Of a stretch of DNA of 64,000 nt, positions 25,801-64,000 are shown one piece after another. Source of the stretch: Mobula hypostoma (Eukaryota); contig NC_086097.1 in the NCBI RefSeq assembly GCF_963921235.1, forward strand, positions 99,016,001 to 99,080,000, given 5' to 3'. The notes beneath the pieces are model-generated. The model was given only the letters and a program-made list of their open reading frames with translations. It searched no databases and was not told the origin of the DNA. Every line of letters begins with the position of its first letter. The first letter of the stretch is position 1. The translations under genes and the position numbers were made by a program.

Positions 25801-28445
25801 CTCTGTGATGGGGAGACTGGGGTCTGTGTTTCTGTTGTGGGGAGACTGGGGTCTGTGGTTCTGTTGTGGGGAGACTGGGGTCTGTGTTTCTGTTGTGGAG
25901 AGACTGATGTCTGTGTTTTTTCAGTGATGGGGAGCCTGAGGTCTGTGTTTCTGATATGGGGAGACTAGTGTCTGTGTTTCTGCTATGGGGAGTCTTAGGT
26001 CTGTGTTTCTGATATTGGAAGACTGGGGTCTGTGTTTCTGTTGTGGGGAGAATGGGGTCTGTTTTTCTGATATGGGGACACTGGGATCTGTGTTTCTCTC
26101 TGATGGGAAGCCTAAAGTCTGTGTTTCTGTAATGTGGAGACTGAGGTTTGTGTTTCTGCAATGGGGAGACTGCGGTCTGTGTTTTTCAGTGATGGGGAGC
26201 CTGTGGTCTGTGTTCTGTTGTGGGGATACTGATGTCTATGTTTCTGATATGGGGAAACTGAGGTCTGTGTTTCTCCTTTTGGGTGATTTGGATGTTTGTT
26301 TCTGTTTTGCAGAGACTAAAGTTCGTGTTTCTGCTCTGAAATGACTGAGGTCTGCGTTCCTGTTATACGGAGACAGGTCTGTGGTTCTGTTATGGGGAGA
26401 CTGGGGTCTGTGTGTCTGTTGTTCTGTTGTGGGGAGACTGGGGTCTGTGGTTCTGTTGTGGGGAGACTGGGGTCTGTGTTTCTGTTGTGGGGAGACTGGG
26501 GTCTGTGTGTCTGTTGTTCTGTTGTGGGGAGACTGAGGTCTGTGTGTCTGTTGTTCTGTTGTGGGGATACTGGGATCTGGTGTCTGTTGTTCTGTTGTGG
26601 GGATACTGGGATCTGTGTTTCTGTTGTGGGGAGACTGGGGTCTGTGTTTCTGTTGTGGGGAGACTGGGGTCTGTGTTTCTGTTGTGGGGAGACTGGGGTC
26701 TGTGTGTCTGTTGTTCTGTTGTGGGGAGACTGAGGTCTGTGTGTCTGTTGTTCTGTTGTGGGGATACTGGGATCTGTGTTTCTGTTGTGGGGAGACTGGG
26801 GTCTGTGGTTCTGTTGTGGGGAGACTGGGGTCTGTGTTTCTGTCGTGGGGAGACTGGGGTCTGTGTTTCTGTTGTGGGGAGACAGGGGTCTGTGTTTCTG
26901 TTGTGGGGAGACTGAGGTCTGCATTTTTCAGTGATGGGGAGACTGAGGTCTGTTCTTTTATGGGGAAAATGATGTCTGTGTTTCTCCTTTTGGGTGACCA
27001 GGGTGTTTGTTTCTGTTTTACAGAGACTGCAGTTTGTGTTTCTGCTATGAAATGACTGAGGTCTGTGTTCCTGCTATAGGGAGACAGAGATCTGTGTTTT
27101 TGTTATGGGGAGTCTGCGTTCTGTGTTTCTGGTGTGGGGAGACTGAGGTCTGTGTTCCTGCTATAGGGAGAGAGAGATCTGTGTTTTTGTTTTGGGGAGT
27201 CTGAGTTCTGTGTTTCTGTTATGGGGAGACTGAGGTCTGTGTTTCTGAGATGGGGAAAGTGAGGTCTGTATTTCTCCTTTTGGGTGATCTGGGTGTTTGT
27301 TTCTGCTTTACAGAGACTGAAGTTTGTGTTTCTGCTATAAATGACTGAGGTCTGTGTTTCTTTTATGGGGAGACTGAGTTCTGTGTTTCTGTTGTGGGGT
27401 GACTGGGGTCTGTGTTTCTGTTGTGGGGTGACTGGGGTCTGTGTTTCTGTTGTGGGGCGACGGGTCTGTGTTTCTGTTGGGCGGAGACTGGGGTCTGTGT
27501 TTCTGTTGTGGGGTGACTGGGGTCTGTGTTTCTGTTGGGCGGAGACTGGGTTTTGTGTTTCTTCTGGGTGTTCTGGGTGTGTGTTTCAGTTTTGCAGATA
27601 ACATGTTTCTGCTATGAAATTACTGTGGTCTGTGTTTATGTTGTGGAGAGACTAGGTTCTGTGTTTCTGTTGTGGGGAGACTGAGGTCTGTGTTCCTGCT
27701 ATAGGGAGACTGGGGTCTGTGTTTTTTTATAGGGAGACGGGGGTCTGTGTTTCTGTTATGGGGAAACTGGTCTGTGTTTCTGACATAGGGAAACTGGGGT
27801 CCCTGTTTGATTTGGGGAGAGTGGTGTCTGTGTTTCTGATATGGGGAAGCTGAGGTCTGTGTTTCTTTGTTTGAGTGACCTGGGTGTTTGTTTCTGTTTT
27901 GCAGAGACTGCAGTCCATGTTTCTGCTGTGAAATTACTGTGGTCTGTGTTTATGTTGTGGAGAGACTAGGTTCTGTGTTTCTGTTATGGAGAGACTGAGG
28001 TCTGCATTCCTGCTACAGGGAGACAGAGATCTGTGTTTCTGTTATGGGGGCGGGGTGTTGAGGTCTGTGTTTCTGTTATGAGGAAACTGAAGTCTATGTT
28101 TCACTGTGATGGGGAGTCTGAGATCTTCGTTCTGCTATGGAGCGACTGAGGTCTGTGTTTCTGTTATGGGGAAACTGAGGTCTGTGTTTTTGTTCTGGGG
28201 AAACTGAGATCTTGGTTTCACTGTGATTGGGAGACTGACGTCTGTGTTTCTGCTTTGTGGAAAATAAGATCCATGCTTCCACTATGGGGAGAATGAGGTC
28301 TGTGTTTCTGTTATGGGGACACTGGGATCTGTGTTTCTATTATGGGAAGACTGGGGTGGGGTCTGTGTTTCTGTTATGAGGAGACTGAGGTCTGTGTTTC
28401 TGTTATAGGGAGTCTGTGTTTCATTGACGACGGGAGTGATGTCTG
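22826..28445. repeat. 29-bp minisatellite (GGGGAGACTGAGGTCTGTGTTTCTGTTAT) with a ~705-bp higher-order repeat
   Basis: Tandem units read directly; identical 79-aa ORFs recur at 23251, 23955, 24660 and 25365. Confidence 0.97.
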
Positions 28446-34149: not shown

Positions 34150-37100
34150 CTCTGTGAGGGGGAGATAGTGAAATGTCCCTCTGTGAGGGAGAGATAGTGA
34201 AGTGTCCCTCTGTGAGAGGGAGGTAGTGAAGTGTATCTCTGTGAGGGAGAGATAGTGAAGTGTCCCTCTGTGAGAGGGAGGTAGTGAAGTGTATCTCTGT
34301 GAGGGTGAGATAGTGAAGTGTACCTCTGTGAGGGTGAGATAGTGAAGTGTACCTCTGTGAGGGGGAGATAGTGAAGTGCATCTCTGTGAGGGGGAGATAG
34401 TGAAGTGTATCTCTGTGAGGGGGAGATAGTGAAGCGTCCCTCTGTGAGAGGGAGATAGTGAAGTGTATCTCTGTGAGGGTGAGACAGTGAAGTGTACCTC
34501 TGGGAGAGGGAGATAGTGAAGTGCATCTCTGTGAGGGGGAGGTAGTGAAGTGCATCTCTGTGAGGGGGAGATAGTGAAGTGTATCTCTGTGAGAGGGAGA
34601 TAGTGACGTGTATCTCTGTGAGAGGGAGATAGTGACGTGTACCTCTGTGACAGTGAGATAGTGAAGTGTATCTCTGTGAGGGGGAGATAGCGAAGTGTAT
34701 CTCTGTGAGGGGGTGATAGCGAAGTGTATCTCTGTGAGGGGGAGATGGTGAAGTGTATCTCTGTGAGGGGAGATAGCGAAGTGTATCTCTGTGAGAGGGA
34801 GATGGTGAAGTGTACGCCTGTGAGGGGGAGATAGTGAAGTGTACCACTGTGAGAAGGAGATAGTGACACGTCCCTCTGTGAGAGGGAGATAGTGACAGGT
34901 CCCTCTGTGAGAGGGAGATAGTGAAGTGTCCCTCTGTGGGGTGGAGGCAGTGAAGTGTATCTTTGTGAGGGGGGATGGTGAAGTGTACCTCTGTGAGAGA
35001 AAGGCAGTGAAGTGTATCTCTGGGAGGGGGAGATAGTGAAGTGTATCTCTGTGAGGGGGAGATAGTGAAGTGTATCTCTCTGAGGGGGAGATAGTGAAGT
35101 GTACCTCTGTGAGAGGGAGATAGTGACGTATATCTCTGTGAGGGGGAGATAGTGAAGTGTATCTCTCTGAGGGGGAGATAGTGAAGTGTACCTCTGTGAG
35201 AGGGAGATAGTGACGTATATCTCTGTGAGAGGGAGATAGTGAAGTGTACCTCTGTGATGGGGAGATAGTGAAGTATACCTCTGTGATGGGGAGATAGTGA
35301 AGTGTCAGAGGGAGATAGTGAAGAGTATCTCTGTGACGGGGAGGCTGTGAAGTGTATCTCTGTGAGGGGGAGATAGTGAAGTGTATCTCTGTGAGGGGGA
35401 AATAGTGAAGTGTATCACTGTGAGGGTGAGATAGTGAAGTTTACCTCCGTGAGAGGGAGACAGTGAAATGTATCTCTGTGAGGGGGAGGTAGAGAAGTGT
35501 AGCTCTGTGAGAGGGAGATAGTGAAGTGTACCTCAGTGAGAGGGAGATAATGAAGTGTCCCTCTGTGAGAGGGAGATAGTGAAGTGTATCTCTGTGACGG
35601 GGAGATAGTGAAGTGTACCTCTGTGAGAGAGAGACAGTGAATTGTACCTCTGTGAGGGTGACATAGTGATGTGTATCTCTGTTAGAGGGAGATAGTGAAG
35701 TGCACCTCTGTGATGGGGAGATAGTGAACTGTCAGAGGGAGATAATGAAGTGTATCTCTGTGAGGGGGAGGCTGTGAAGTGTATCGCTGTGAGGGGGAGG
35801 TAGTGAAGTGTATCTCTGTGAGAAGGAGATAGTGAAGTGTACCTTTGTGAGGGGGAGATAGTGAAGTGAATCTCTGTGAGGGGGGGGAGATAGAGAAGTG
35901 TCCCTCTGTGAGGGGGAGATAGTGAAGTGTACCACTCTGAGGGGGAGATAGTGAAGTGAACCACTCTGAGGGGGAGATAGTGAAGTGTTCCTCTGTGAGG
36001 GGGTGATAGTGAAGTGTATCTATGTGAGAGGGAGATAATGAAGTGTACCTCTGTGAGGGGGGGATAATGAAGTGTACCTGTGAGGGGGGGATAGTGAAGT
36101 GTATCTTTGTGAGAGGGAGATAGTGAAGTGTACCTCTGTGAGGGGGAGATAGTGAAGTGTATCTCTGTGAGGGGGAGATAGTGAAGTGTATCTCTCTGAG
36201 GGGGAGATAGTGAAGTGTATCTCTGTGAGAGGGAGATAGTGAAGTATCAGAGGGAGATAGTGAAGTGTATCTCTGTGAGGGGGAGATGGTGAAGTGTATC
36301 TCTGTGAGAGGGAGATAGTGAAGTGTCCCTCTGTGAGGGGGAGATGGTGAAGTGTATCTCTGTGAGAGGGAGATAGTGAAGTGTCCCTCTGTGAGGGGGA
36401 GATGGTGAAGTGTATCTCTGTGAGGGGGAGATGGTGAATTGTATCTCTGTGAGAAGGAGATAGTGAAGTGTCCCTCTGTGAGGGGGAGGTAGTGAAGTGT
36501 ATCTCTGTGAGGGGGAGGTAGTGAAGTGTATCTCTGTGAGGGGGAGAGAGTGAATTGTACCTCTGTGCGGGCGAGATAGTGAAGTGTATCTCTGTGAGGG
36601 GGAGATAGTGAAGTGTACCTCTGTGAGTGGGAGATGGTGAAGTGTATCTCTGTGAGGGGGAGATGGTGAATTGTACCTCTATGAGAGGGAGTTAGTGAAG
36701 TGTATCTCTGTGAGGGGGAGATAGTGAAGTGTCTCTCTGTGAGAAGGAGATAGTGAAGTGTACCACTGTGAGAAGGAGATAGTGACAGGTCCCTCTGTGA
36801 GAGGGAGATAGTGAAGTGTCCCTCTGTGGGGGGGAGGCAGTGAAGTGTATCTTTGTGAGGGGGGATGGTGAAGTGTACCTCTGTGAGAGAAAGGCAGTGA
36901 AGTGTATCTCTGGGAGGGGGAAATAGTGAAGTGTATCTTTGTGAGAGGGAGATAGTGAAGTGTATCTCTGTGAGGGGGAGATAGTGAAGTGTATCTCTCT
37001 GAGGGGGAGATAGTGAAGTGTACCTCTGTGAGAGGGAGATAGTGACGTATATCTCTGTGAGGGGGAGATAGTGAAGTGTATCTCTCTGAGGGGGAGATAG

Positions 37101-40100
37101 TGAAGAGTACCTCTGTGAGAGGGAGATAGTGACGTATATCTCTGTGAGAGGGAGATAGTGAAGTGTATCGCTGTGAGGGGGAGATAGTAAAGTGTCAGAG
37201 GGAGATAGTGAAGTGTATCTCTGTGAGGGGGAGGCTGTGAAGTGTATCTCTCCGAGGGGGAGATAGTGAAGTGTATCTCTGTGAGCGGGAGATGGTGAAG
37301 TGTATCTCTGTGAGCGGGAGATGGTGAAGTGTATCTCTGTGAAGGGGAGATAGTGACATGTCCCTGTGTGATATTGAGATAGTGAAGTGTATCTCTGTGA
37401 GAGCGGGACACTGAAGTGTATCTCTGGGAGGGGGAGATAGTGAAGTGTATCTCTCTGAGGGTGAGATAGTGAAGTGTATCTTTGTGATAGGGAGATAGTG
37501 AAGTGTACGTCTGTGAGGGGGAGTTAGTGAAGTGTATCTGTGAGGGGGAGATAGTGAAATGTATCTGTGAGGGGGAGATAGTGAAGTGTACCTCTGTGAG
37601 GGGGAGATTGTGAAGTGTATCTCTGCGAGGGGGAGATAGTGAAGTGTATCTCTGTGAGGGGGAGTTAGTGAAGTGTATCTGTGAGGGGGAGATTGTGAAG
37701 TGTATCTCTGCGAGGGGGAGATTGTGAAGTGTATCTCTGGGAGGGGGAGATAGTGAAGTGTATCTCTCTGAGGGTGAGATAGTGAAATGTATCTTTGTGA
37801 GAGGGAGATAGTGAAGTGTACGTCTGTGAGGGGGAGTTAGTGAAGTGTATCTGTGAGGGGGAGATAGTGAAGTGTATCTGTGAGGGGGAGATAGTGAAGT
37901 GTACCTCTGTGAGGGGGAGATTGTGAAGTGTATCTCTGCGAGGGGGAGATTGTGAAGTGTATCTCTGTGAGGGGGAGGCAGTGAAGTGTACCTCTGTGAG
38001 AGGGAGATAGTGAAGTGTACCTCTGTGAGGGGGAGATAGTGAAGTTTAACTCCATGAGAGGGAGACAGTGAAATGTATCTCTGTGAGAGTGAGATAGTGA
38101 AGTGTATCTCTCTGACGGGGAGATAGTGAAGTGTATCTCTGTGACGGGGAGATAGTGAAGTGTAATTCTGTGAGAGGGAGATAGTGAAGTTTACCTCAGT
38201 GAGAGGGAGGCAGTGAAGTGCATCTCTGTGAGGGGGAGATAGTGAAGTGTACCTCTGTGATAAGCAGATAGTGAAGTGTATCGCTGTGAGGGGGAGATAG
38301 TAAAGTGTCAGAGGGAGATAGTGAAGTGTATCTCTGTGAGGGGGAGGCTGTGAAGTGTATCTCTGTGAAGGGGAGACAGTGAAATGTACTTCCGTGAGAG
38401 GGAGATAGTGAAGTGTATCTCTGTGAGAGGGAGATAGTCAAGTTTACCTCCATGAGAGGGAGACAGTGAAGTGTCCCTCTGTGAGGTGGAGATAGTGAAG
38501 TGTATCTCTGTGAGAGGGAGATAGTGAAGTGTATCTCTGTGAGAGGGAGATAGTGAAGTGTATCTCTGTGAGGGGGATTTAGTGAAGTGTATCTCTGAAG
38601 GGGAGATAATGAAGTGTACCTCTGTGAGGGGGAGGCAGTGAAGTGCACCTCTGTGATATGCAGATAGTGGTGTATCTCTGTGAGGGGGAGATAGTGAAGT
38701 TTATCTCTGTGAGAGCGAGATAGTGAAGTGTCCTTCTGTGAGGGGGAGGTAGTGAAGTGCACCTCTGTGAGGGGGAGATGGTGAAGTGTATCTCTGTGAG
38801 GGGGAGGTAGTGAAGTGTATCTCTGTGAGGGGGAGGCTGTGAAGTGTATCTCTGTGAAGGGGAGACAGTGAAATGTACTTCCGTGAGAGGGAGATAGTGA
38901 AGTGTATCTCTGTGAGAGGGAGATAGTCAAGTTTACCTCCGTGAGAGGGAGACAGTGAAGTGTCCCTCTGTGAGGTGGAGATAGTGAAGTGTATCTCTGT
39001 GAGAGGGAGATAGTGAAGTGTCCCTCTGTGAGGGGGAGGTAGTGACGTGTACCTCTGTGAGGGGGAGATAGTGAAGTGTATCTCTCTGAGATGCAGATAG
39101 TGAAGTGTCCGTCTGTGATATGCTGATAGTAAATTGTATCTCTGTGATAGGGAGATAGTGAAGTGTCCTTCTGTGAGGGGGAGGTAGTGAAGTGTATCTC
39201 TGTGAGACGGAGAGAGTGAATTGTACCTCTGTGTAGGGGAGATAGTGATGTGTACCTCTGTGTGGGGGAGATGGTGAAGGGAATCTCTGTGAGGGGGAGA
39301 TAGTGAAGGGAATCTCTGTGAGGGGGAGATAGTGAAGCGAATCTCTGTGAGGGGGAGATAGTGAAGTGTATCTCTGTGAGGGGCAGATAGTGAAGTGTAT
39401 CTCTCTGAGATGCAGATAGTGAAGTGTCCGTCTGTGAGGGGGAGGTAGTGAAGTGTATCTCTGTGAGACGGAGAGAGTGAATTGTACCTCTGTGTGGGGG
39501 AGATAGTGATGTGTATCTCTGTGTGGGGGAGATGGTGAAGGGAATCTCTGTGAGGGGGAGATAGTGAAGCGAATCTCTGTGAGGGGGAGATAGTGAAGTG
39601 TATCTCTGTGAGGGGGAGATAGTGAAGTGTACCTCTGTGAGTGGGAGATAGTGACTTGTCCCTTTGAGAGGGGGAGATAGTGAAGTGTACCACTGTGAGA
39701 GGGTGATAGTGAAGTGTACCTCTCTGAGGGGGAGATTTGAAGTGTATCTCTGTGAGGGGGAGATAGTGAAGTGTATCTCTGTGAGAAGGAGATAGTGAAG
39801 TGTATCTCTGTGAGAGGGAGATAGTGAAGTGTACCTCTGTGACAGGGAGGTAGTGACGTGTATCTCTGTGAGGGGGAGATAGTGTATTGTACTTCCGTGA
39901 GAGGGAGATAGTGAAGTGTATCTCTGTGAGAGGGAGATAGTCAAGTTTACCTCCGTGAGAGGGAGACAGTGAAGTGTCCCTCTGTGAGGTGGAGATAGTG
40001 AAGTGTATCTCTGTGAGAGGGAGATAGTGAAGTGTACCTCTGTGAGGGGGAGATAGTGAAGTGTATCTCTCTGAGATGCAGATAGTGAAGTGTCCGTCTG

Positions 40101-41315
40101 TGATATGCTGATAGTAAAGTGTATCTCTGTGAGAGGGAGATAGTGAAGTGTCCTTCTGTGAGGGGGAGGTAGTGAAGTGTATCTCTGTGAGAGGGAGATA
40201 GTCAAGTTTACCTCCGTGAGAGGGAGACAGTGAAGTGTCCCTCTGTGAGGTGGAGATAGTGAAGTGTATCTCTGTGAGAGGGAGATAGTGAAGGGAATCT
40301 CTGTGAGGGGGAGATAGTGAAGCGAATCTCTGTGAGGGGGAGATAGTAAAGTGTATCTCTGTGAGAGGGAGATAGTGAAGTGTCCTTCTGTGAGGGGGAG
40401 GTAGTGAAGTGTATCTCTGTGAGACGGAGAGAGTGAATTGTACCTCTGTGTGGGGGAGATAGTGATGTGTACCTCTGTGTGGGGGAGATGGTGAAGGGAA
40501 TCTCTGTGAGGGGGAGATAGTGAAGTGAATCTCTGTGAGGGGGAGATAGTGAAGTGTATCTCTGTGAGGGGGAGATAGTGAAGTGTATCTCTCTGAGATG
40601 CAGATAGTGAAGTGTCCGTCTGTGAGGGGGAGGTAGTGAAGTGTATCTCTGTGAGACGGAGAGAGTGAATTGTACCTCTGTGTGGGGGAGATAGTGATGT
40701 GTATCTCTGTGTGGGGGAGATGGTGAAGGGAATCTCTGTGAGGGGGAGATAGTGAAGCGAATCTCTGTGAGGGGGAGATAGTGAAGTGAATCTCTGTGAG
40801 GGGGAGATAGTGAAGTGTACCTCTGTGAGTGGGAGATAGTGACTTGTCCCTTTGAGAGGGGGAGATAGTGAAGTGTACCACTGTGAGAGGGTGATAGTGA
40901 AGTGTACCTCTCTGAGGGGGAGATTTGAAGTGTATCTCTGTGAGAGGGAGATAGTGAAGTGTATCTCTGTGAGGGGGAGATAGTGAAGTGTACCTCTGTG
41001 ACAGGGAGGTAGTGACGTGTACCTCTGTGACAGGGAGGTAGTGACGTGTATTTCTGTGAGGGGGAGATAGTGACATTTCCCTCTGTGAGAAGGAGAAAGT
41101 GACGTATATCTCTGTGAGAGGGAGATAGTGAAGTGTACCTCTGTGATGTGGAGATAGTGAAGTATATCTCTGTGAGAGGGAGATAGTGAAGTGTATCTCC
41201 GTGAGGGGGAGATAGTGTAGTGTATCTCTGTGATGGGAGATAGCGAAGTGTCCCTCTGTGATGGGAGATAGTGAAGTGTACGTCTGTGAGAGCGAGATAG
41301 TGAAGTGTATGTCTA
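34150..41315. repeat. 29-bp minisatellite (GTGAAGTGTATCTCTGTGAGGGGGAGATA), ~7.1 kb
   Basis: Tandem units read directly; variant blocks are duplicated at kb scale. Confidence 0.97.
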
Positions 41316-48710: not shown

Positions 48711-51539
48711 ACTTAACCCACTATGTTAACCCTCAACCTGCATCCCTAAATTCCTTTTCCTCTCGGAGGTTTTTTGTAGCCTCCCAAATCTGTGCCTGCA
48801 TTATCCAGGTATTTGAAAAAAAAAGTGCACTTAATATCAGAAGATCCTGGTAATACTCAGAAAATCAGGCAGCATCTATGAAGTGAGGAAGAAAGTTAAT
48901 GTTACTTGCCTATGATCATTCATCAGAATTGGAAAAGTGAGAAAAGAAGGCCGTTTTAAACTGCAGAGAGAAAGAGCACAGAAGGAACTAAGAAAATGGT
49001 TGTGATAGAATCGAGACTAACACTGTCCATGTTGGGTATTTAATATTTCAGTAATATTGTAAATATATTGTTTGGTTAAGCATTTTTATTCATTTAAATA
49101 ATTTATTCTCAGTTTTATGTAAAAGTACATGCATGGCATAGGACATTATATCTCATGCGTGTGCCTCACTTAAAGTAACAACAATGTTCAACTCACATTC
49201 CCGGCTCCCTTCTTTTCCTTTCAGTTAGTTTAATGTTTTGGAGTTATTTTTTAAATGAACCTGAGACAACTACCTACCTGTTGAAGCACAGCAAGAAACA
49301 GTCAAGTTAAAAGAAAAGTGCAGCACCTATTTTTTCTTCGTAGTAGCACTTTTTTCACAAAAGGCGATTGTGTTTTAAAAAAGTCAGAAAATGGAAGAAT
49401 TCATGGGTTCATAAACAGTGTGCACTGGATGATAATAATCATTAAGAAAAGATCAGAAATGGCTAGCTACATCAGAAAGATTAATGTGTTTGATTACACA
49501 TCAGATAACTGGATATTGTATATTGAGCAGATTGAGAGGTATTTTCAAGCAAATGAAATAGCTACTGAGAACCGAGTGCCAACTTCACTGAGTGCATTAG
49601 ATTTAAGAGCATACCGTTTGCTTAAAAGTTTGACTGCTTCAACCAAACCAGCTGAAATATGCCTTGCCAATATTTTGAAAGTAATGCAGGAATCAAAACC
49701 ATTGTTGATTGCAGAATGCTTTAGGTTTCTTAAGTAGAATCAAAAAGAAGGGGAATCCATTACAGTATGCATGGCTGAATTGAAGAGATTGTCTGAACAT
49801 TATCAGTTTGGTAACTGTCTTAATGATGCACTGAGAAATCTTTTAGTTTGTGGAATCTCACAAGAAAGCATTCAAAAATGGCTCCTAGGTGAAGCACAAC
49901 TTACATTTGAAAGAGTGTCAATGGAAACAGCAGACGGAGATGCAACTGAATTGCAGTCAGGAATGAAAGTGAGTGTTAACAAAATTACAACGTCTAAACA
50001 GAAACCAGCCTGACTGAACAAATGGTATTACTGTTGTGGCAGGGACTCACATAGACCAGACTAATGCAGATTTAAAGGTGATACTTGCAGAAAATTAACA
50101 AAGTAGGACACATACAAAGAGTATGCTGGGCAGACAAAAATAAATGGACAGCACAGAGAAGAGAAAAAGCCAAAAAGTCAATATTCCAACTGATTCCAAC
50201 TAAGAATTTACACTGAAGAGAAAACTCCTGTGGGAATGATATTTGCAACGGCAAAACACAACAATCAATAAGCCACATTGAGCTTGTATGCGGTAAAAAT
50301 AGAATGACCAGCATTGCAGAGTCACGAGTGGCTGAGACAACTACAGCTTGATTGGAGATCCATCCACCATTTTCATGCCACATCCCCAGCGACAGAGTCA
50401 ACTGAAAGCAAATTAAGTAAGGTCCTGGATGATGCCATGGCAGTGTTCAATGATTGGAAAACTCATACATTTCAAGGGTAAAATAGTGTCAAATGAAAAT
50501 GCCACACCCAAGTTTTACAAAGCCCATCTGGTTCCTTGTACCATCTGTGATAAAGTGAATTAGATTGCATGGAGTCTGAAGGAATTCTTTCCAAGGTTGA
50601 GTGGAGCCCTGGGCAATACCAATGGTCCCAGTAGCCAAGAAGGATGGGTCTGTCAGGATCTGTTGTGATTTTAAGGTCACCATCATCCCAGTACTGAAAG
50701 TAGTTCAATACCATCTGCCCGAGATAGAGGATATCTTTGCAAACCCTTCTGGAGGAAAACACTTCAACAAAATGAACTTAGCTGAGACCTACCTACCGAT
50801 GGACATGGAAGAAGTGTTTCTCACCATAAACACTCACAGTAACAGGCTTATTTCTGAAGTAGCATCTGTATCTGCACTCTTGCAGAAAGCTATTGACCAG
50901 GTGCTGTAAGGCTACACAGGCACTTAGTGTTACCTGGATGACATCATTGTTACTAGTAAAGATGACGACTAACATCTCAAAAATGTCAAGACAGTGTTAA
51001 AAATATCTAAAGATTATGGGCTCAGAGCACATCACAACAAGAATGAATTATTTACACCAAGCATCATTTACTGTGGTAACACCATTGACACACAAGAATT
51101 ACACGTGTGCTGAGAAAATCCAAGGAGTGGTGGATGCCCAGAAGCTAAAGGATGTGTCACATCTGAAATCTTTTTTGGGATTCGTCAATTACTGTAACAG
51201 CTTCCTGCCAAATTTGGCTATGTGCTCTACCCCGTGAAATCATTACTACAGATCGGGAAGAAATGGCAATGGACAAAGCAGTATGAGGTGGCTTTCCAAA
51301 ATGTAAAGGAAATGGTGATGTCAGACACTGTATCCACTTTGTCTAGTGAAGCTTGCTAACACATCCAGAAGAAAGGTATCCAGAGCTGTCAGAACCACTT
51401 CCTGCAGTCTCAGAGTCAACTCCTAAAGCCACAACAGAGGAGGCCCCAGAAACAGAGACTGTTTCACAGCCACAAATCTCAACTGCCAAGCAGAGTCTTG
51501 TTAAGAAAGATGTTATCCCACAAGAGTAAGAAATCATCT

Positions 51540-51834
51540 GAGAGTCTGAGTGGGAGTGCCGAGAAAGACATTTTTGAAATTTTCGTTATTTTTTTTTCTC
51601 CAACGGCGTTCTGAGAGGCGGGACTGCGCAGGCGTGTGACGTCAAGCTGTGCAGCACGGCAGATTTAAAAGGAACAGAGCCTCAGAGAGCGGGCAGCGTA
51701 GTTTGCGGGCTGCGGAGTGAGCCGGGAGCAGAGTGAAGACTTAAGGGCTTCGGCTCAACGGGCTTAGGCGGAAACGGGCGGGGCGAGGAAGGTTTGGTAT
51801 TCATTTTCTGTTGTTATTTGAGGAGAGGGGCAGT
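51540..51834 (+). promoter_or_regulatory. CR1 5' UTR / putative internal promoter
   Basis: CpG-dense; TGCGCAGGCG (NRF1-like, 51625-51634); TGACGTCA (CRE, 51637-51644); TTTAAAA ~51664; GGGCGGGGC (GC box, 51776-51784). Confidence 0.55.
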
Positions 51835-52770
51835 ATGAGTGTGAGGGCAGTTTGCTGTACTCGGTGTCGGATGTGGGAGGCCCTGGAGTCTCCAAGCCTC
51901 CCGGACGTCTACATCTGCGCCAAGTGCATCGAGATGCAGCTCCTAAGGGACCGCGTTAGGGAACTGGAGCTGCAGCTCGATGACCTTCGTCTGGTCAGGG
52001 AGAGTGAGGAGTTGATAGAGAGGAGTTACAGGCAGGTGGTCACACCGGGGCCATGGGAGGCAAACAAGTGGGTCACGGTTAGGAGGGGGAAGGGGAAGAG
52101 TCAGGTAATAGAGAGTACCCCGGTGACTGTGCCCCTTAACAATAGGTACTCCTGTTTGAGTACTGTTGGGGGGGACGACTTACCCGGGGGAAGCGACAGT
52201 GGCCGTGCCTCTGGCACAGAGTCTGGCCCTGTAGCTCAGAAGGGTAGGGCAAGGAAGAGGAGGGCAGTTGTGATAGGGGACTCAATAGTATGGGGGTCAG
52301 ATAGGCGATTCTGTGGACGCAGTCCAGAGACCCGGATGGTACTTTGCCTCCCTGGTGCCATGGTCCGGGATATTTCTGATCGTGTCCAAGATATCCTGAA
52401 GTGGGAGGGTGAGGAGCCAGAGGTCGTGGTACATATAGGTACCAATGATATAGGTAGGAAAAGGGATGAGGTCCTGAAAGGAGAATATAGGGAGCTGGGG
52501 AGGGAGTTGAGAAAAAGGACCGCAAAGGTAGTAATCTCGGGATTACTGCCTGTGCCACGCGACAGTGAGAGTAGGAATGCGATAAGGTGGAGGATAAATG
52601 CGTGGCTGAGGGATTGGAGCAGGGTGCAGGGATTCAAGTTTTTGGATCATTGGGACCTCTTTTGGTGCAGGTGTGACCTGTACAAAAAGGACAGGTTACA
52701 CTTGAATCCTAGGGGGACCAATATCCTGGCAGGGAGATTAGCGAGGGCTACGGAGGTGACTTTAAACTAG
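51835..52770 (+). CDS. CR1 ORF1p (311 aa): N-terminal Cys-rich finger, coiled coil, SGNH esterase
   Basis: CTRC...CAKC; LRDRVRELELQLDDL heptads; SGNH blocks GDS, HIGTND, DRLHLN; frame intact from ATG 51835. Confidence 0.9.
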   Translation: MSVRAVCCTRCRMWEALESPSLPDVYICAKCIEMQLLRDRVRELELQLDDLRLVRESEELIERSYRQVVTPGPWEANKWVTVRRGKGKSQVIESTPVTVPLNNRYSCLSTVGGDDLPGGSDSGRASGTESGPVAQKGRARKRRAVVIGDSIVWGSDRRFCGRSPETRMVLCLPGAMVRDISDRVQDILKWEGEEPEVVVHIGTNDIGRKRDEVLKGEYRELGRELRKRTAKVVISGLLPVPRDSESRNAIRWRINAWLRDWSRVQGFKFLDHWDLFWCRCDLYKKDRLHLNPRGTNILAGRLARATEVTLN

Positions 52771-55700
52771 AATGGTTGGGGGGTGGGAATCAAATTAAAG
52801 AGGCTAGGCGTGAGGAGGTTAGTTCACAACAGGGGGATGGGAACCGGTGCAGAGAGACAGAGGGGTGTAAAGTGAGGGTAGAAGCAAAAAGTACTAAGGA
52901 GAAAGGTAAAAGTGGCAGGCCGACAAATCCAGGGCAAGCATTAAAAAGGGCCACTTTTCAACATAATTGTATAAGGGCTAAGAGAATTGTAAAAGAGCGC
53001 CTGAAGGCTTTGTGTGTCAATGCAAGGAGCATTCGTAATAAGGTGGATGAATTGAAAGTGCAGATTGTTATTAATGATTATGATATAGTTGGGATCACAG
53101 AGACATGGCTCCAGGGTGACCAAGGATGGGAGCTCAACGTTCAGGGATATTCAATATTCAGGAGGGATAGACATGAAGGAAGGGGAGGTGAGGTGGCGTT
53201 GCTGGTTAAAGAAGAGATTAACGCAATAGAAAGGAAGGACATAAGCCGGGAAGATGTGGAATCAATATGGGTAGAGCTGCGTAACACTAAGGGGCAGCAG
53301 ACGCTGGTGGGAGTTGTGTACAGGCCACCTAACAGTAGTAGTGAGGTCGGAGATGGTATTAAACAGGAAATTAGAAATGTGTGCAATAAAGGAACAGCAG
53401 TTATAATGGGTGACTTCAATCTACATGTAGATTGGATGAACCAAATTGGTAAAGGTGCTGAGGAAGAGGATTTCTTGGAATGTATGCGGGATGGTTTTTT
53501 GAACCAACATGTCGAGGAACCAACTAGAGAGCAGGCTATTCTGGACTGGGTTTTGAGCAATGAGGAAGGGTTAATTAGCAATCTTGTCGTGAGAGGCCCC
53601 TTGGGTAAGAGTGACCATAATATGGTGGAATTCTTCATTAAGATGGAGAGTGACATAGTTAATTCAGAAACAAAGGTTCTGAACTTAAAGAGGGGTAACT
53701 TTGAAGGTATGAGATGTGAATTAGCTAAGATAGACTGGCAAATGACACTTAGACGGTGGATATGCAATGGCAAGCATTTAAAGGTTGCATGGATGAACTA
53801 CAACAATTGTTCATCCCAGTTTGGCAAAAGAATGAATCAAGGAAGGTAGTGCACCCGTGGCTGACAAGAGAAATTAGGGATAGTATCAATTCCAAAGAAG
53901 AAGCATACAAATTAGCCAGAGAAAGTGGCTCACCTGAGGACTGGGAGAAATTCAGAGTTCAGCAGAGGAGGACAAAGGGCTTAATTAGGAAGGGGAGAAA
54001 AGATTATGAGAGAAAACTGGCAGGGAACATAAAAACTGACTGTAAAAGCTTTTATAGATATGTAAAAAGGAAAAGACTGGTAAAGACAAATGTAGGTCCC
54101 CTACAGACAGAAACAGGTGAATTGATTATGGGGAGCAAGGACATGGCAGACCAATTGAATAATTACTTTGGTTCTGTCTTCACTAAGGAGGACATAAATA
54201 ATCTTCCAGAAATAGTAGGGGACAGAGGGTCCAGTGAGATGGAGGAACTGAGCGAAATACATGTTAGTAGGGAAGTGGTGTTAGGTAAATTGAAGGGATT
54301 GAAGGCAGATAAATCCCCAGGGCCAGATGGTCTGCATCCTAGAGTGCTTAAGGAAGTAGCCCAAGAAATAGAGGATGCATTAGTGATAATTAACTCGTTA
54401 GATTCTGGACTAGTTCCTGAGGATTGGAGGGTGGCTAATGTAACCCCACTTTTTAAAAAAGGAGGGAGAGAGAAACCTGTGGAATTATAGACCGGTTAGC
54501 CTAACGTCGGTGGTGGGGAAACTGCTGGAGTCAGTTATCAAAGATGTGATAACAGCACATTTGGAAAGCGGTGAAATGATCGGACAAAGTCAGCATGGAT
54601 TTGTGAAAGGAAAATCATGTCTGACGAATCTCATAGAATTTTTTGAGGATGTAACTAGTAGAGTGGATAGGGGAGAACCAGTGGATGTGGTATATTTGGA
54701 TTTTCAAAAGGCTTTTGACAAGATCCCACACAGGAGATTAGTGTGCAAACTTAAAGTACACGGTATTGGGGGTAAGGTATTGATGTGGATGGAGAATTGG
54801 TTAGCGGACAGGAAGCAAAGAGTGGGAATTAACGGGACCTTTTCAGAATGGCAGGCAGTGACTAGTGGGGTACCGCAAGGCTCAGTGCTGGGACCCCAGT
54901 TGTTTACAATATATATTAATGACTTGGATGAGGGAATTAAATGCAGCATCTCCAAGTTTGCGGATGACACGAAGCTAGGCAGCAGTGTTAGCTGTGAGGA
55001 GGATGCTAAGAGGATGCAGAGTGACTTGGATAGGTTGGGTGAGTGGGCAAATTCATGGCAGATGCAATTTAATGTGGATAAATGTGAAGTTATCCACTTT
55101 GGTGGCAAAAATAGGAAAACAGATTATTATCTGAATGGTGGCCGATTAGGAAAAGGGGAGGTGCAACGAGACCTGGGTGACATTATACACCAGTCATTGA
55201 AAGTGGGCATGCAGGTACAGCAGACGGTGAAAAAGGCGAATGGTATGCTGGCATTTATAGTGAGAGGATTCGAGTACAGGAGCAGGGAGGTACTACTGCA
55301 GTTGTACAAGGCCTTGGTGAGACCACACCTGGAGTATTGTGTGCAGTTTTGGTCCCCTAATCTGAGGAAAGACATCCTTGCCATAGAGGGAGTATAAAGA
55401 AGGTTCACCAGATTGATTCCTGGGATGGCAGGACTTTCATATGAAGAAAGACTGGATGAACTAGGCTTGTACTCGTTGGAATTTAGAAGATTGAGGGGGG
55501 ATCTGATTGAAACGTATAAAATCCTAAAGGGATTGGACAGGCTAGATGCAGGAAGATTGTTCCCGATGTTGGGGAAGTCCAGAACAAGGGGTCGCAGTTT
55601 GAGGATAAAGGGGATGCCTTTTAGGACTGAGATTAGGAAAAACTTCTTCACACAGAGAGTGGTGAATCTGTGGAATTCTCTGCCACAGGAAACAGTTGCG

Positions 55701-55796
55701 GCCAGTTCATTGGCTATATTTAAGAGGGAGTTAGATATGGCCCTTGTGGCTACAGGGATCAGGGGGTATGGAGGGAAGGCTGGGGCGGGGTTCTGA
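52761..55796 (+). pseudogene. CR1 ORF2 (APE endonuclease + reverse transcriptase), disrupted
   Basis: NARSI, GITETW, YRPP, GDFN, SDH (APE); QHGF, LDFQKAFD, PQGSVLGP, FADD (RT); frameshifts near 53750 and 54480; stop at 55395-55397. Confidence 0.92.
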
Positions 55797-56352
55797 GTTG
55801 GATGATCAGCCATGATCATAATAAATGGCGGTGCAGGCTCGAAGGGCCGAATGGCCTACTCCTGCACCTATTTTCTATGTTTCTACAGGTAATAAATCTT
55901 TAGGCCTGAATGGGATAATTTAAAATTGACTATGCTGTGGATGTCTATACAGTAGTTGTGTTATATAGAACACTGAATGTACCACCACGTCATATGCGTG
56001 CTTAAAGTAACAACAAAATTCGACTCGCATTCCCAGCTCTCTTGTTTTCCATTCAATTGGTTCAATGGTTTGGAGTTACAAAACATTACAGTCCAGGTCC
56101 CAGTTGCTAAGATTGTCCAAGTGACACAATTGCTTTTATTGTCATCAAAGAGGAACAGGTTAATGAGAGCTCAGGTACCTGAAGAAGATGTAAAAAGAGA
56201 AACCAAATGAAATAACATGTTGGAGCTGAGCAATGAAGAACACACAGCTCTTGGAAATCCAAACTAAAGGGGAAGCAGGAAATACTCAGTAGATTAGAAG
56301 GAGGGAGGGAGAGAGAAACAGAGAGACAGATATGGGAGGGGAAGAGGGAGTG

Positions 56353-58893: not shown

Positions 58894-59689
58894 GCAGTCA
58901 GGAGAGCTGTTCTTCAGATGAAAATTAAAGGACACTCTGATTGTTTAATCACTCTATCTGTTTAAAGTTTTGATCACCATTCAAAGATGACCTTGAAGGG
59001 AGACACACAATAGTGTTCATGATTCTGACTCAGACAGCCAACAGTTCCAGTCTCAGTTCACACTGCAGCACCCAACCCCAACTTAGGCTGACACTATGGA
59101 ACAATAACTTGGGATGAGACAGTGATGATAAAATAACATAAAAGGACCCCTGGCACAATATTGGGAAGTTCTTTCTGCCCAAAAACACCAACCAGTTCAG
59201 AGTCAATTCAATATCACATCGCTATCTCAGTGGTGTATTTCCATCTGCAAATTAGCAGCAGCATTTCATACAATACGAGAGGACTGACATTTCTGAAGTA
59301 CTTCTCAAACTGCGAGGAGGATCGTAATGGACGTAAGTGAAAACTGTGTCATGGAGTCATAGTGTAGGATCTTTGGGTCATCCAGTCCATACTGATGACA
59401 GTGCCCACCCAGCCAATCCCAGTTTCCATATCCTGCTAAGCCCTGCCCCTCCATGGATCAATGCAAGGGCTTCATAAGTGATACTATTGAACCTGCCTCG
59501 ACCACTTCCTTGGGCTGTGCTTCCTTTTCTGATGAGGTGAGGGAATGTTTCTTGAGTGTCTGGAAGGGCAGCATAGCTCCGCAAGGGACAACTGAAGCCA
59601 AAATCACAACCCTGGGCTCGCTGCCTGGGCACACTTGGTGGTGAAGGGACAAATCCTACATCTTGCCTTGCCATTATGATCTCACCCAC

Positions 59690-59839
59690 CTCCTGTGAAT
59701 TCATGATTGTTTCCATGTGCGCCGCGTCTCTGAAGAAAATCTGCTCCTGGTGCATCCTCTCCAGCCAGCCCTTCTTCAGCTCCCACTGACTGTACAGATC
59801 CGATCTCTCCTTCTGCAGACTATCAACTTTGTCTTTGAC
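59690..59839 (-). CDS. SPTBN5: Spectrin beta V coding exon (1st in window; VKDKVDSLQK...TIMNSQE), phase 0/0
   Basis: ctctag| acceptor and |gtgggt donor; 150 nt; spectrin-repeat helix C/A pattern (W at ELKKGWLE, IFFRD). Confidence 0.88.
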
Positions 59840-60371: not shown

Positions 60372-63300
60372 CTGGACGGAGGAAGTGAGACAGGTGAAGG
60401 TATGCAGCGCGTGGACAGGAGGAGAATGAGACAGGTGAAGGTATGCAGCACGTGGACAGGAGGAGAATGAGACAGGTGAAGGTATGCAGCGCGTGGACAG
60501 GAGGAGAATGAGACAGGTGAAGGTATACACCGCGTGGACAGGAGGAGAATGAGACAGGTGAAGGTATGCAGTCCGTGCACAGAGGAACTAAGTCAGGTGA
60601 AGGTATGCAGCGCGTGGACAGGAGGAGAATGAGACAGGTGAAGGTATGCAGCGCGTGGACAGGAGGAGAATGAGACAGGTGAAGGTATGCAGCGCATGGA
60701 CAGAGGAAGTGAGACAGGTGAAGGTATACACCGCGTGGACAGGAGGAGAATGAGACAGGTGAAGGTATGCAGTCCGTGCACAGAGGAACTAAGTCAGGTG
60801 AAGGTATGCAGCGCGTGGACAGGAGGAGAATGAGACAGGTGAAGGTATGCAGTGCGTGGACAGAGGAAGTGAGACAGGTGAAGGTATGCAGCGCGTGGAC
60901 AGGGGAGTGAGACAGGTGAAGGTATCACGCGTGGACAGGAGGAGAATGAGACAGGTGAAGGTATGCAGGCGTGGACAGGAGGAGAATGAGACAGGTGAAG
61001 GTATGCAGCGCATGGACAGAGGAAGTGAGACAGGTGAAGGTATACACCGCGTGGACAGGAGGAGAATGAGACAGGTGAAGGTATGCAGTCCGTGCACAGA
61101 GGAACTAAGTCAGGTGAAGGTATGCAGCGCGTGGACAGGAGGAGAATGAGACAGGTGAAGGTATGCAGTGCGTGGACAGAGGAAGTGAGACAGGTGAAGG
61201 TATGCAGCGCGTGGACAGAGGGAGTGAGACAGGTGAAGGTATGCAGCGCGTGGACAGAGGAAGTGAGACAGGTGAAGGTATGCAGCACGTGGACAGAGAA
61301 AGTGAGACAGGTGAAGGTATGCAGCGCCTGGAGAGGAGGAGAATGAGACAGGTGAAGATATGCAGCGTGTGGACAGAGGGAGTGAGACAGGTGAAGGTAT
61401 GCAGAGCGTGGACAGTGGAAGTGAGACAGGTGAAGGTATGCAGCGCATGGACAGGAGGAGAATGAGACAGGTGAAGGTATACAGCGCGTGAACAGGAGGA
61501 GAATGAGACAGGTGAAGGTATGCAGCGCGTGGACAGAGGAAGTGAGACAGGTGAAGGTATGCAGCGCGTGGACAGAGGAAGTGAGACAGGTGAAGGTATG
61601 CAGCGCGTGGACAAAAGAAGTGAGACAGGTGAAGGTATACACCGCATGGACAGGAGGAGAATGAGACAGGTGAAGGTATGCAGCGCGTGGACAGGAGGAG
61701 AATGAGACAGGTGAAGGTATGCAGCACGTGGACAGAGGAAGTGAGACAGGTGAAGGTATGCAGCGCGTGGACAGAGGGAGTGAGACAGGTGAAGGTATGC
61801 AGCGCGTGGACAGAGGGAGTGAGACAGGTGAAGGTATGCAGCGCATGGACAGAGGGAGTGAGACAGGTGAAGGTATGCAGCGTGTGGACAGGAGGAGAAT
61901 AAGACAGGTGAAGGTATGCAGCGCGTGCACAGAGGAACTAAGTCAGGTGAAGGTATGCAGCGCGTGGACAGGAGGAGAATGAGACAGGTGAAGGTATGCA
62001 GCGCGTGTACAGAGGGAGTGAGACAGGTGAAGGTATGCAGCGCGTGGACAGAGGGAGTGAGACAGGTGAAGGTATACAGCGCGTGGACAGAGAAAGTGAG
62101 ACAGGTGAAGGTATGCAACGCGTGGACAGAGGAAGTGAGACAGGTGAAGGTATGCAGCGCGTGGACAGAGGGAGTGAGACAGGTGAAGGTATGCAGCGCG
62201 TGGACAGAGGAGGTGAGACAGGTGAAGGTATGCAGCGCGTGGACAGAGGGAGTGAGACAGGTGAAGGTATGCAGCGCGTGCACAGAGGAAGTGAGGCAGG
62301 TGAAGGTATTCAGCGCGTGGACAGGAGGAGAATGAGACAGGTGAAGGTATGCAGCGTGTGGACAGAGGGAGTGAGACAGGTGAAGGTATGCAGTGCGTGG
62401 ACAGAGGAAGTGAGACAGGTGAAGGTATGCAGCGCTTGGACAGAAGAAGTGAGACAGGTGAAGGTATACACCGCGTGGACTGGAGGAGAATGAGACAGGT
62501 GAAGGTATGCAGCGAGTGGACGGGAGGAGAATGAGACAGGTGAAGGTATGCAGTGCATGGACAGAGGAAGTGAGACAGGTGAAGGTATGCAGCGCGTGGA
62601 CAGGAGGAGAATGAGACAGGTGAAGGTATGCAGCGCGTGGACAGGAGGAGAATTTGACAGGTGAAGGTATGCAGTGCGTGGACAGAGGAAGTGAGACAGG
62701 TGAAGGTATACACCGCGTGGACAGGAGAAGAATGAGACAGGTGAAGGTATGCAGCGCGTGGACAGGAGGAGAATGAGACAGGTGAAGGTATGCAGCGCGT
62801 GCACAGAGGAAGTGAGTCAGGTGATGGTATGCAGCGCATGGACAGGAGGAGAATGAGACAGGTGAAAGGTATGCAGCGCGTGGACAGGAGCAGAATGAGA
62901 CAGGTGAAGGTATGCAGCGCGTGGACAGGAGGAGAATTAGACAGCTGAAGGTATGCAGCGAGTGGACAGAGGAAGTGAGACAGGTGAAGGTATGCAGCGC
63001 GTGGACAGAGGAAGTGAGACAGGTGAAGGTATGCAGCGCATGGAAAGAGGAAGTGAGGCAGGTGAAGGTATGCAGCGCGTGGACAGGGGAAGTGAGACAG
63101 GTGAAGGTATGCAGCGCGTGGACAGAGTAAGTGAGACAGGTGAAGGTATACAGCACGTGGACGGAGGAAGTGAGACAGGTGAAGGTATGCAGCACGTGGA
63201 CAGGAGGAGAATGAGACAGGTGAAGGTATACACTGCGTGGACAGGAGGAGAATGAGACAGGTGAAGGTATGCAGCGCGTGGACAGGAGGAGAATGAGACA

Positions 63301-64000
63301 GGTGAAGGTATGTAGCGCGTGGACAGAGGAAGTGAGACAGGTGAAGGTATGCAGCGCGTGTACAGAGGGAGAGAGACAGGTGAAGGTATGCAGCGCGTAG
63401 ACAGAGGGAGTGAGACAGGTGAAGGTATGCAGCGCGTGGACAGAGGGAGTGAGACAGGTGAAGGTATGCAACGCGTGGACAGAGGAAGTGAGACAGGTGT
63501 AGGTATGCAGCGCGTGGACAGGAGTAGACTGAGACAGGTGAAGGTATGCAGCGCGTGCACAGAGGAAGTGAGACAGGTGAAGGTATGCAGCGCTTGGACA
63601 GGAGGAGAATGAGACAGGTGAAGGTATGCAGCACGTGGACAGAGGAAGTGAGACAGTTGAAGGAATGCAGCGCGTGGACAGAGGAACTGAGACAGGTGAA
63701 GCTTGGCAGCGCGTGGACAGGAGGAGAATGAGACAGGTGAAGGTATGCAGCACGTGGACAGAGGAAGTGAGACAGGTGAACGTATGCAGCGCGTGGACAG
63801 GAGGAGAATGAGACAGGTGAAGGTATGCAGCGCGTGGACAGAGGAAGTGAGACAGGTGAAGGTATGCAGCACGTGGACAGAGAAAGTGAGACAGGTGAAG
63901 GTATGCAGCGCCTGGAGAGGAGGAGAATGAGACAGGTGAAGATATGCAGCGTGTGGACAGAGGGAGTGAGACAGGTGAAGGTATGCAGAGCGTGGACAGT
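60372..64000. repeat. 39/41-bp minisatellite (GAGACAGGTGAAGGTATGCAGCGCGTGGACAG + AGGAAGT or GAGGAGAAT); runs off the window end
   Basis: Two interspersed unit lengths read directly. Confidence 0.97.

Follow-up and report, generated by a model that had tools for sequence, protein, structure and literature searches.

This report concerns a stretch of 64,000 nucleotides of the ray Mobula hypostoma (NCBI RefSeq assembly GCF_963921235.1, contig NC_086097.1, positions 99,016,001 to 99,080,000 of the forward strand), referred to in full as the window, and specifically a long interspersed nuclear element (LINE) of the CR1 type that it contains. The first open reading frame (ORF1) of this element ends in the heptamer U_UUA_AAC, which is immediately followed by the ORF1 stop codon, and the frame of ORF2 is displaced by −1. 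This junction feature is real and deeply conserved, and its letters are kept at synonymous positions far beyond what is seen in control positions. Judging from sequence comparison, programmed −1 frameshifting probably yields a fusion of ORF1 with the APE endonuclease and reverse transcriptase (RT) of ORF2 in this CR1 family, a reading to which we give a probability of roughly 0.8. The parts of the element, all on the + strand and numbered from the first letter of the window, are as follows.

51537..55885 (+): full-length CR1-type LINE of 4349 bp; other genomic copies align at 96–97%
51835..52770 (+): ORF1, 311 amino acids, Cys-rich N-terminus followed by an SGNH/GDSL esterase, ending ...VTLN-stop
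52761..52767 (+): slippery heptamer U_UUA_AAC in the phase of ORF1
52768..52777 (+): 10-nt spacer of fixed length, made up of the ORF1 stop TAG and 7 variable bases
52778..52787 (+): conserved G-rich motif GGGGG-NN-GGG, a candidate frameshift stimulator
52771..53003 (+): linker, open in the −1 frame alone and without Met
53004..53750 (+): APE endonuclease part of ORF2 (Pfam PF03372, E 1e-10), with the first in-frame ATG at 53406
53751..53752 (+): first ORF2 break in the window copy, which is 7 bases shorter here than other copies and changes frame
54444..55397 (+): reverse transcriptase piece of ORF2 (Pfam PF00078, E 4e-33)
55843..55885 (+): 3′ end, with a short inverted repeat and a TTTCTATG-type terminal repeat

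The element has the properties of a CR1-type esterase LINE: an SGNH esterase in ORF1 (residues 146–294 match Pfam PF13472, E 1e-15, above the cut-off), APE followed by RT in ORF2, dispersed copies, a short 3′ terminal repeat, and a length that at 4349 bp falls in the size class of about 4.5 kb that PMC2734521 gives for esterase-ORF1 CR1 elements. The closest named ORF1 is a ray protein with 91% identity, and a PDB sequence search with the APE part gave no match. A TTTCTATG-type 3′ end with a short inverted repeat is typical of CR1, and we take the element to be a CR1 rather than an L2 on the basis of its architecture and motifs. The family is young, with junction matches of 98–100% in 40 scored copies of 1608 candidates, and the window copy is a dead member of it because its ORF2 is broken further downstream.

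The junction was first pointed out in an earlier note made from the letters alone, and the anatomy described there is confirmed apart from small corrections. TTTAAAC at 52761–52767 is in phase with ORF1 (acT TTA AAC) and is adjoined by TAG at 52768–52770, and the ORF2 frame, open from 52713 to 53849, is −1 relative to ORF1; within the linker, stop codons number 5, 9 and 0 in frames 0, +1 and −1, respectively. The first ORF2 ATG, at 53406, does lie deep in the APE domain, some 117 residues into the Pfam endonuclease match, although its distance from the heptamer is 215 codons rather than the estimated 210 or so. Since more than half of the endonuclease match comes before this ATG, AUG initiation gives no whole ORF2 protein (ORF2p), in line with the claim that normal initiation could not make one from this copy. 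An AUG at 52772 is in the +1 frame and opens just 8 codons. Two details are amended here: the slip had been read as TTT AAA CTA (F-K-L), whereas a tandem slip would give the peptide T-L-N-L-E-W; and the G-rich segment is indeed downstream, but the spacing of its conserved part, which begins at 52778, is 10 nt from the heptamer instead of 6. The pattern of heptamer, stop, 7 nt and GGGGG is found once in the window and in none of 100 shuffles. An early in-frame AUG in the family, which would have spoken against the proposal, was not found, as Met precedes the APE domain in 0 of 30 close copies, all 30 of which keep the heptamer and stop.

Close copies are unable to show selection, and therefore diverged families were gathered from the M. 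hypostoma genome with homologous ORF1 proteins as queries, and metagenome loci were added. The junction was anchored by ORF1 minus its final 8 residues, so that the anchor is blind to the last 8 codons. In this way 144 loci were assigned to 10 ray families (F1–F10), with 131 being scorable, that is, having a stop at the expected place; one locus (L031) was excluded, its best match being a nested F1 copy. Within-family mismatch rates were set aside, since inserted copies decay neutrally and those at hand had been selected beforehand. Among 46 loci from metagenomes and genome contigs (L061–L106), the majority are truncated or belong to other esterases, and the junction is visible in nine (L061–L065, L069, L070, L072 and L090); some of the 46 are called amniote-like below, a presumptive label that draws on likeness to P0087. 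Searches of viral contigs found neither CR1 relatives nor matches to the pattern, a plasmid search found none, prokaryote genome contigs gave 4 distant loci only, none of them informative, and searches of the ray's own genome with P0018, P0236 and P0228 gave no match at strict E cut-offs.

Across this material, TTTAAAC stands directly 5′ of the ORF1 stop in 116 of the 131 scorable ray copies, each of the 10 ray families sampled has heptamer plus stop as its most frequent form, and the same heptamer and stop recur in six amniote-like loci (L062, L064, L065, L069, L070 and L072). The stop itself is either TAA or TAG wherever a family has several copies, and TAA in 6 of the 10. Esterase identity between ray families is 50–89%, and median identity at fourfold sites is 0.50, or 0.36 in APE. 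At the junction, by comparison, there is no variation in the Leu codon, in the Asn codon or in the last base of the variable codon before them. The synonymous controls behave quite differently, with a single codon kept in 4 of 101 invariant-residue columns among nine ray families and in 1 of 24 columns over 13 lineages. As for background codon use, TTA accounts for 14–18% of Leu codons and AAC for 39–49% of Asn codons, and T ends 25% of fourfold codons.

A further line of evidence is that the heptamer changes in distant relatives in a manner that would preserve slipperiness. At L063, a locus with 32% identity whose relatives include crustacean-named proteins, ORF1 ends CAG GGA AAC TAG, which is the canonical heptamer G_GGA_AAC-UAG, and the −1 frame is open into the APE domain. 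At the protein level, ORF1 ends were compared among representatives of 50% clusters (150 listed, 100 with the anchor motif, 93 scorable). Fifty-nine of the 93 end in LN, GN or KN, compared with 3.0 in shuffles, and 70 have a slippery-compatible pair within the last five residues, compared with 11.6 expected. The residue that precedes LN has a codon able to end in T, and the residue that precedes GN has one able to end in G; the fit of these preceding residues is 17:1 for LN versus 0:9 for GN (Fisher p 2e-6, the lineages not being independent). Before GF, all 11 of 11 residues, including Met and Trp, have a codon able to end in G. Other ORF1 ends in distant relatives fit A_AAA_AAC and G_GGU_UUU, and the four end types match the four heptamers, U_UUA_AAC among them, that a review names as most shifty (PMC5009743). 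On a FastTree tree the types LN, GN, KN, GF and FF are interleaved, though the type labels of proteins with long tails may be due to chance. For a KN family, two database proteins agree at 14 of 14 codons with one DNA read both in frame 0 and in frame −1. This establishes AAA AAC, though not the base with which the heptamer starts, and a Met-free path reaches the APE motif; in the KN clade the candidate site lies 10–14 codons before the ORF1 stop.

A different arrangement was seen in two other distant esterase elements, in which ORF1 ends TGA CTA A (L086:1326-1331 and L080:1642-1647, the latter truncated). In L086 the same frame remains open for >138 codons beyond the TGA and into the APE motif, with the first Met 35 codons on. 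TGA CTA is a readthrough context, and the position of ORF2 behind it looks like stop-codon readthrough, which in L086 would yield the same ORF1-ORF2 fusion by another route.

Downstream of the heptamer, GGGGG-NN-GGG begins at exactly 10 nt in the ray families and the amniote-like loci, and the intervening spacer is constant in length and variable in its letters. Read in the −1 frame, the two Gly positions of the motif have GGG as their modal codon, the first in all 14 lineages and the second in 13 of them, compared with about 30% of Gly codons overall. Stop and APE are separated by anywhere between 95 and 308 nt, and 10 of the 12 distinct modal distances give −1 phase, the exceptions being the old, indel-rich F5 and the single F10 copy; counted by copy, −1 phase is found in 94 of 124 ray copies and in 30 of 30 from F1. 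Among in-phase copies, no stop interrupts the −1 frame of the linker in 28/30 for F1, 20/22 for F2 and 8/9 for F4; these per-family counts are given in place of shuffle P values for open linkers, which are biased because representatives were picked for that property. Upstream of the heptamer the −1 frame is open for just 1–2 codons in F9, L062 and L069, so that entry into ORF2 takes place at the junction. Met occurs before APE in 0/30, 1/22, 0/1 and 1/5 copies of F1, F2, F6 and F7, a junction AUG is absent from 9 of the 10 ray families, F1 included, and the codons that stand there instead differ from one another and seldom resemble starts. An in-phase X_XXY_YYZ, an open −1 ORF lacking its own start (in F1) and nucleotide conservation beyond coding need, three marks of a −1 frameshift site, are found here.

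From these features we infer the following course of events. Ribosomes translating ORF1 would reach U_UUA_AAC directly 5′ of the stop, where the majority would terminate at UAG and release the ORF1 protein (ORF1p), and a minority would slip by −1 on the heptamer and enter the AUG-less ORF2. The predicted product of the slip is a fusion of ORF1 (esterase), linker, APE and RT of roughly 1300 residues, and the balance between slip and stop would set a ratio resembling that of Gag to Gag-Pol. The pause that favours slippage may come from the adjacent stop codon together with the G-rich motif 10 nt downstream, with the motif most likely acting not as a hairpin but by way of a protein bound to it or of a G structure of non-canonical kind. 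The esterase-APE-RT fusion proposed in the earlier note is in this way supported by conservation and by heptamer exchange in relatives. The same layout, with X_XXY_YYZ at the end of the upstream structural ORF and the polymerase ORF in the −1 frame, is shared with the U_UUA_AAC site of infectious bronchitis virus and with gag-pol of Rous sarcoma virus. CR1 differs from the retroviral and coronaviral cases in being a non-LTR (long terminal repeat) element, in having no stem-loop or pseudoknot 5–9 nt downstream, and in encoding no protease.

Several observations weigh against frameshifting. The changed heptamer is seen as DNA at one locus only (L063), with the others read from protein ends; at L063 the G-rich stretch has a different spacing and an in-frame AUG lies 13 nt before the heptamer; and teleost-like esterase ORF1s do not have ends of this kind. 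The families have common ancestry, and copies were sorted into them according to query and by visual inspection. The −1 phase is blurred in old families (2/9 copies in F5, 4/8 in F9 and 0/1 in F10), and stop-start sites such as UAAUG and AUGA have this phase as well. Some other families do have an AUG in this part of ORF2: F3 has UAAUG at the junction in 16 of 16 copies, in L062, L064 and L070 an AUG follows the stop at a distance of two codons, and Met is found at scattered linker positions in F4, F5, F8 and F9. A search for natural ORF1-ORF2 fusions among longer homologues, which was a weak one, found none at the level of a family; there were 5 matches, all of them gene-model chimeras, one with both esterase and APE. 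Finally, the folding of the following region, suggested in the earlier note as a check, turned up no 3′ RNA structure: downstream of the site the window shows neither a hairpin nor a pseudoknot (z from −0.3 to +1.8), z near −2 is reached by only 2 of 14 lineages in local folding, and no long-range partner of the G motif is conserved among 23 ray copies and 4 amniote-like loci when the whole element is searched.

No hairpin, pseudoknot or long-range partner that could act as the stimulator of the predicted slip was found. An Rfam search gave no match at the junction, no stem-loop or pseudoknot lies at the 5–9 nt at which RNA-structure stimulators are usually placed (PMC7618472), and the top long-range pairing bins are Pro/Leu-coding stretches, none of which stands out. 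Pairing of the G motif with the 3′ end of the element was considered in some detail. In F1 no other downstream segment pairs with the motif as well as the 3′ end does (−20 kcal/mol, shuffle p 0.04), and in copy L210 the region 52771–52790 can pair with 55850–55875 through 13 pairs at −20 kcal/mol. As a general mechanism this pairing was rejected, since in eight families a family's own pairs average −14.6 compared with −15.2 for foreign ones, F2 and F7 have another 3′ end, and there is no covariation elsewhere. A three-tier G-quadruplex requires four G runs, and the 2–3 runs of at least 3 G found in 45 nt are too few for one; a quadruplex is part of the predicted fold in 4 of 14, and the G4Hunter window is in the top 0.1–8% of each element.

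Our preferred guess for the stimulator is a protein bound to the G motif, by analogy and because RNA structures usually sit 5–9 nt from the site while the protein-bound motif of PRRSV, the virus that causes porcine reproductive and respiratory syndrome, sits at 10 nt. The −2/−1 frameshift in the nsp2 region of PRRSV is stimulated by nsp1beta together with poly(C)-binding protein, acting on unstructured RNA in which the motif CCCANCUCC follows a 10-nt spacer, and is efficient only at spacings of 9–11 nt (PMC4937337, PMC7618472). CR1 shares with it the unstructured downstream RNA, a short conserved homopolymer-rich motif and the 10-nt spacer, a likeness of layout only that holds in the ray and amniote-like loci and fails in L063. 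Unlike the C-rich motif of PRRSV, that of CR1 is G-rich, the heptamer is another one and a stop follows at once, and a protein that binds the CR1 motif would be hypothetical. A much broader proposition can be offered only tentatively, and we would sooner doubt it than assert it: that the LINEs dominant in sharks, rays, reptiles and birds, namely CR1 elements with an esterase ORF1, have made an uncleaved fusion by −1 frameshifting throughout their history, the vertebrate shift being driven by an unstructured G-rich motif at a fixed spacing of 10 nt. The motif would either have a protein of the host or of the element bound to it or adopt an unusual G fold, and it would give the host a switch by which to control retrotransposition.

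Other explanations can be envisioned for the conserved junction. The one that survives best is compatible with frameshifting in the window family and is on the unlikely side as an account of the whole: frameshifting would be ancestral, and those lineages with a junction AUG would also, or instead, make free ORF2p. It would accommodate the varied positions of Met in the linkers listed above and the fact that AUG-bearing lineages retain the full heptamer and G motif. However, the position of the AUG is not conserved, and it is missing there from the sister lineages L069, L072 and F5, as expected of a free coding position.

Considerably less probable is termination-reinitiation without any slip, in which translation would restart beside the ORF1 stop in the −1 frame, at AUG or another codon, to give free ORF2p, and the conserved letters would be a signal for reinitiation or termination. 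The −1 phase fits stop-start geometry, three of the four amniote-like loci that have an APE domain show a nearby AUG, and F3 shares the UAAUG whose coupling is established for the LINE SART1 (PMC2699510); for mammalian L1, AUG-independent initiation is considered likely (PMC5009743). SART1 and mammalian L1 resemble CR1 in their bicistronic RNA and low ORF2 output, but they make free ORF2p by reinitiation, whereas the window family has no AUG and has a slippery site. Reinitiation would predict neither an in-phase X_XXY_YYZ nor its swap for other slippery heptamers that alter the residues. It also sits poorly with the nine of ten ray families that have no junction AUG and freely varying junction codons, with the KN-clade site that lies well ahead of the stop, and with a conserved G motif downstream of the stop, given that the reinitiation elements described in the literature act upstream of it. 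It is very improbable that the letters are conserved for the sake of the C-terminal ORF1p residues, as a DNA site of an internal promoter, or as a splice signal for an ORF2-only RNA: the L-N at the ORF1 end is invariant in vertebrate-type proteins, the site is nearly palindromic and G runs can act as splicing enhancers, yet protein selection fixes neither codons, as the control columns make clear, nor the last position in a codon that varies, codon phase would not matter to a DNA site, there is no conserved AG acceptor because six of ten families have TAA, no GT..AG skip crosses the junction among 15 of 37 joints listed (where sequencing-run contigs may be DNA, no RNA run being listed as carrying the element), and ORF2 would still be without an AUG in F1, F2, F6 and F7.

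The type of recoding proposed here is known, and the host clade would be new. Among APE-type non-LTR elements, TRE5-A and TRE3-A of Dictyostelium are stated in the legend of a review to need a −1 frameshift for ORF2 (PMC5911963); they belong to another lineage and have another ORF1. A frameshift in the gag of HeT-A is on record (PMC5009743), and for LINEs of Paramecium a +1 shift, reinitiation or readthrough has been suggested. Closer relatives, namely CR1 subgroup 7 (ORF1 type IVB), chicken CR1 and ZfL2-1 with its esterase, share the zinc-finger/leucine-zipper-like N-terminus followed by an esterase. Vertebrate esterase CR1 elements are described as having an APE-RT ORF2, a length of about 4.4 kb and two separate ORFs, and in these papers (PMC4120745, PMC2734521, PMC3905857) the word "frameshift" is absent, one of them using "frame-shift" for mutations. 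A full-text literature search found no proposal of frameshifting for CR1, although an earlier remark in the first full descriptions of CR1 is possible.

The translation of LINE ORF2 has so far been explained by reinitiation for a few elements. CR1 elements are abundant in cartilaginous fish. They also make up about 12% of the chicken genome (PMC11835228). If frameshifting is indeed used, CR1 ORF2 has been mis-annotated to date, the active enzyme would be a fusion of ORF1 with ORF2 whose esterase could carry it to membranes, and mobilising an "intact" CR1 would require the junction. A stimulator that is short, unstructured and deeply conserved would be new ground for the recoding field. According to a 2016 review, natural G-quadruplex stimulators of frameshifting were not known; if the G motif does drive the shift, it would represent a new class of natural stimulator and the mirror image of the C-rich motif of PRRSV.

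A number of smaller observations were made along the way. Two types of 3′ end exist among the ray CR1 families (L192–L211), one in F2 and F7 and the other in F1, F3, F4, F5, F8 and F9, and both types share the junction signal. A CR1 ORF1 that is 59% identical to that of the window (P0022) is labelled as an SGNH hydrolase of Pseudomonas aeruginosa, which is probably host contamination in the public record. The CR1 copy itself is nested in a decayed element resembling an LTR retrotransposon (window 49170–51536 and 55890–56090, with gag- and pol-like pieces identified by eye); four of these pieces have no Pfam match, and 56001–56078 is 85% identical to 49169–49246. On the minus strand, the start of an open frame at 59378–59839 resembles by eye an exon of a spectrin-repeat protein, with no Pfam match, and the CR1 may sit in an intron on the strand opposite to this frame. 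The window also holds three long strand-skewed satellite arrays, at 22832–28416, 34150–41314 and 60373–63999, with periods of 29, 29 and 39 and copy numbers of 190, 249 and 91, respectively.

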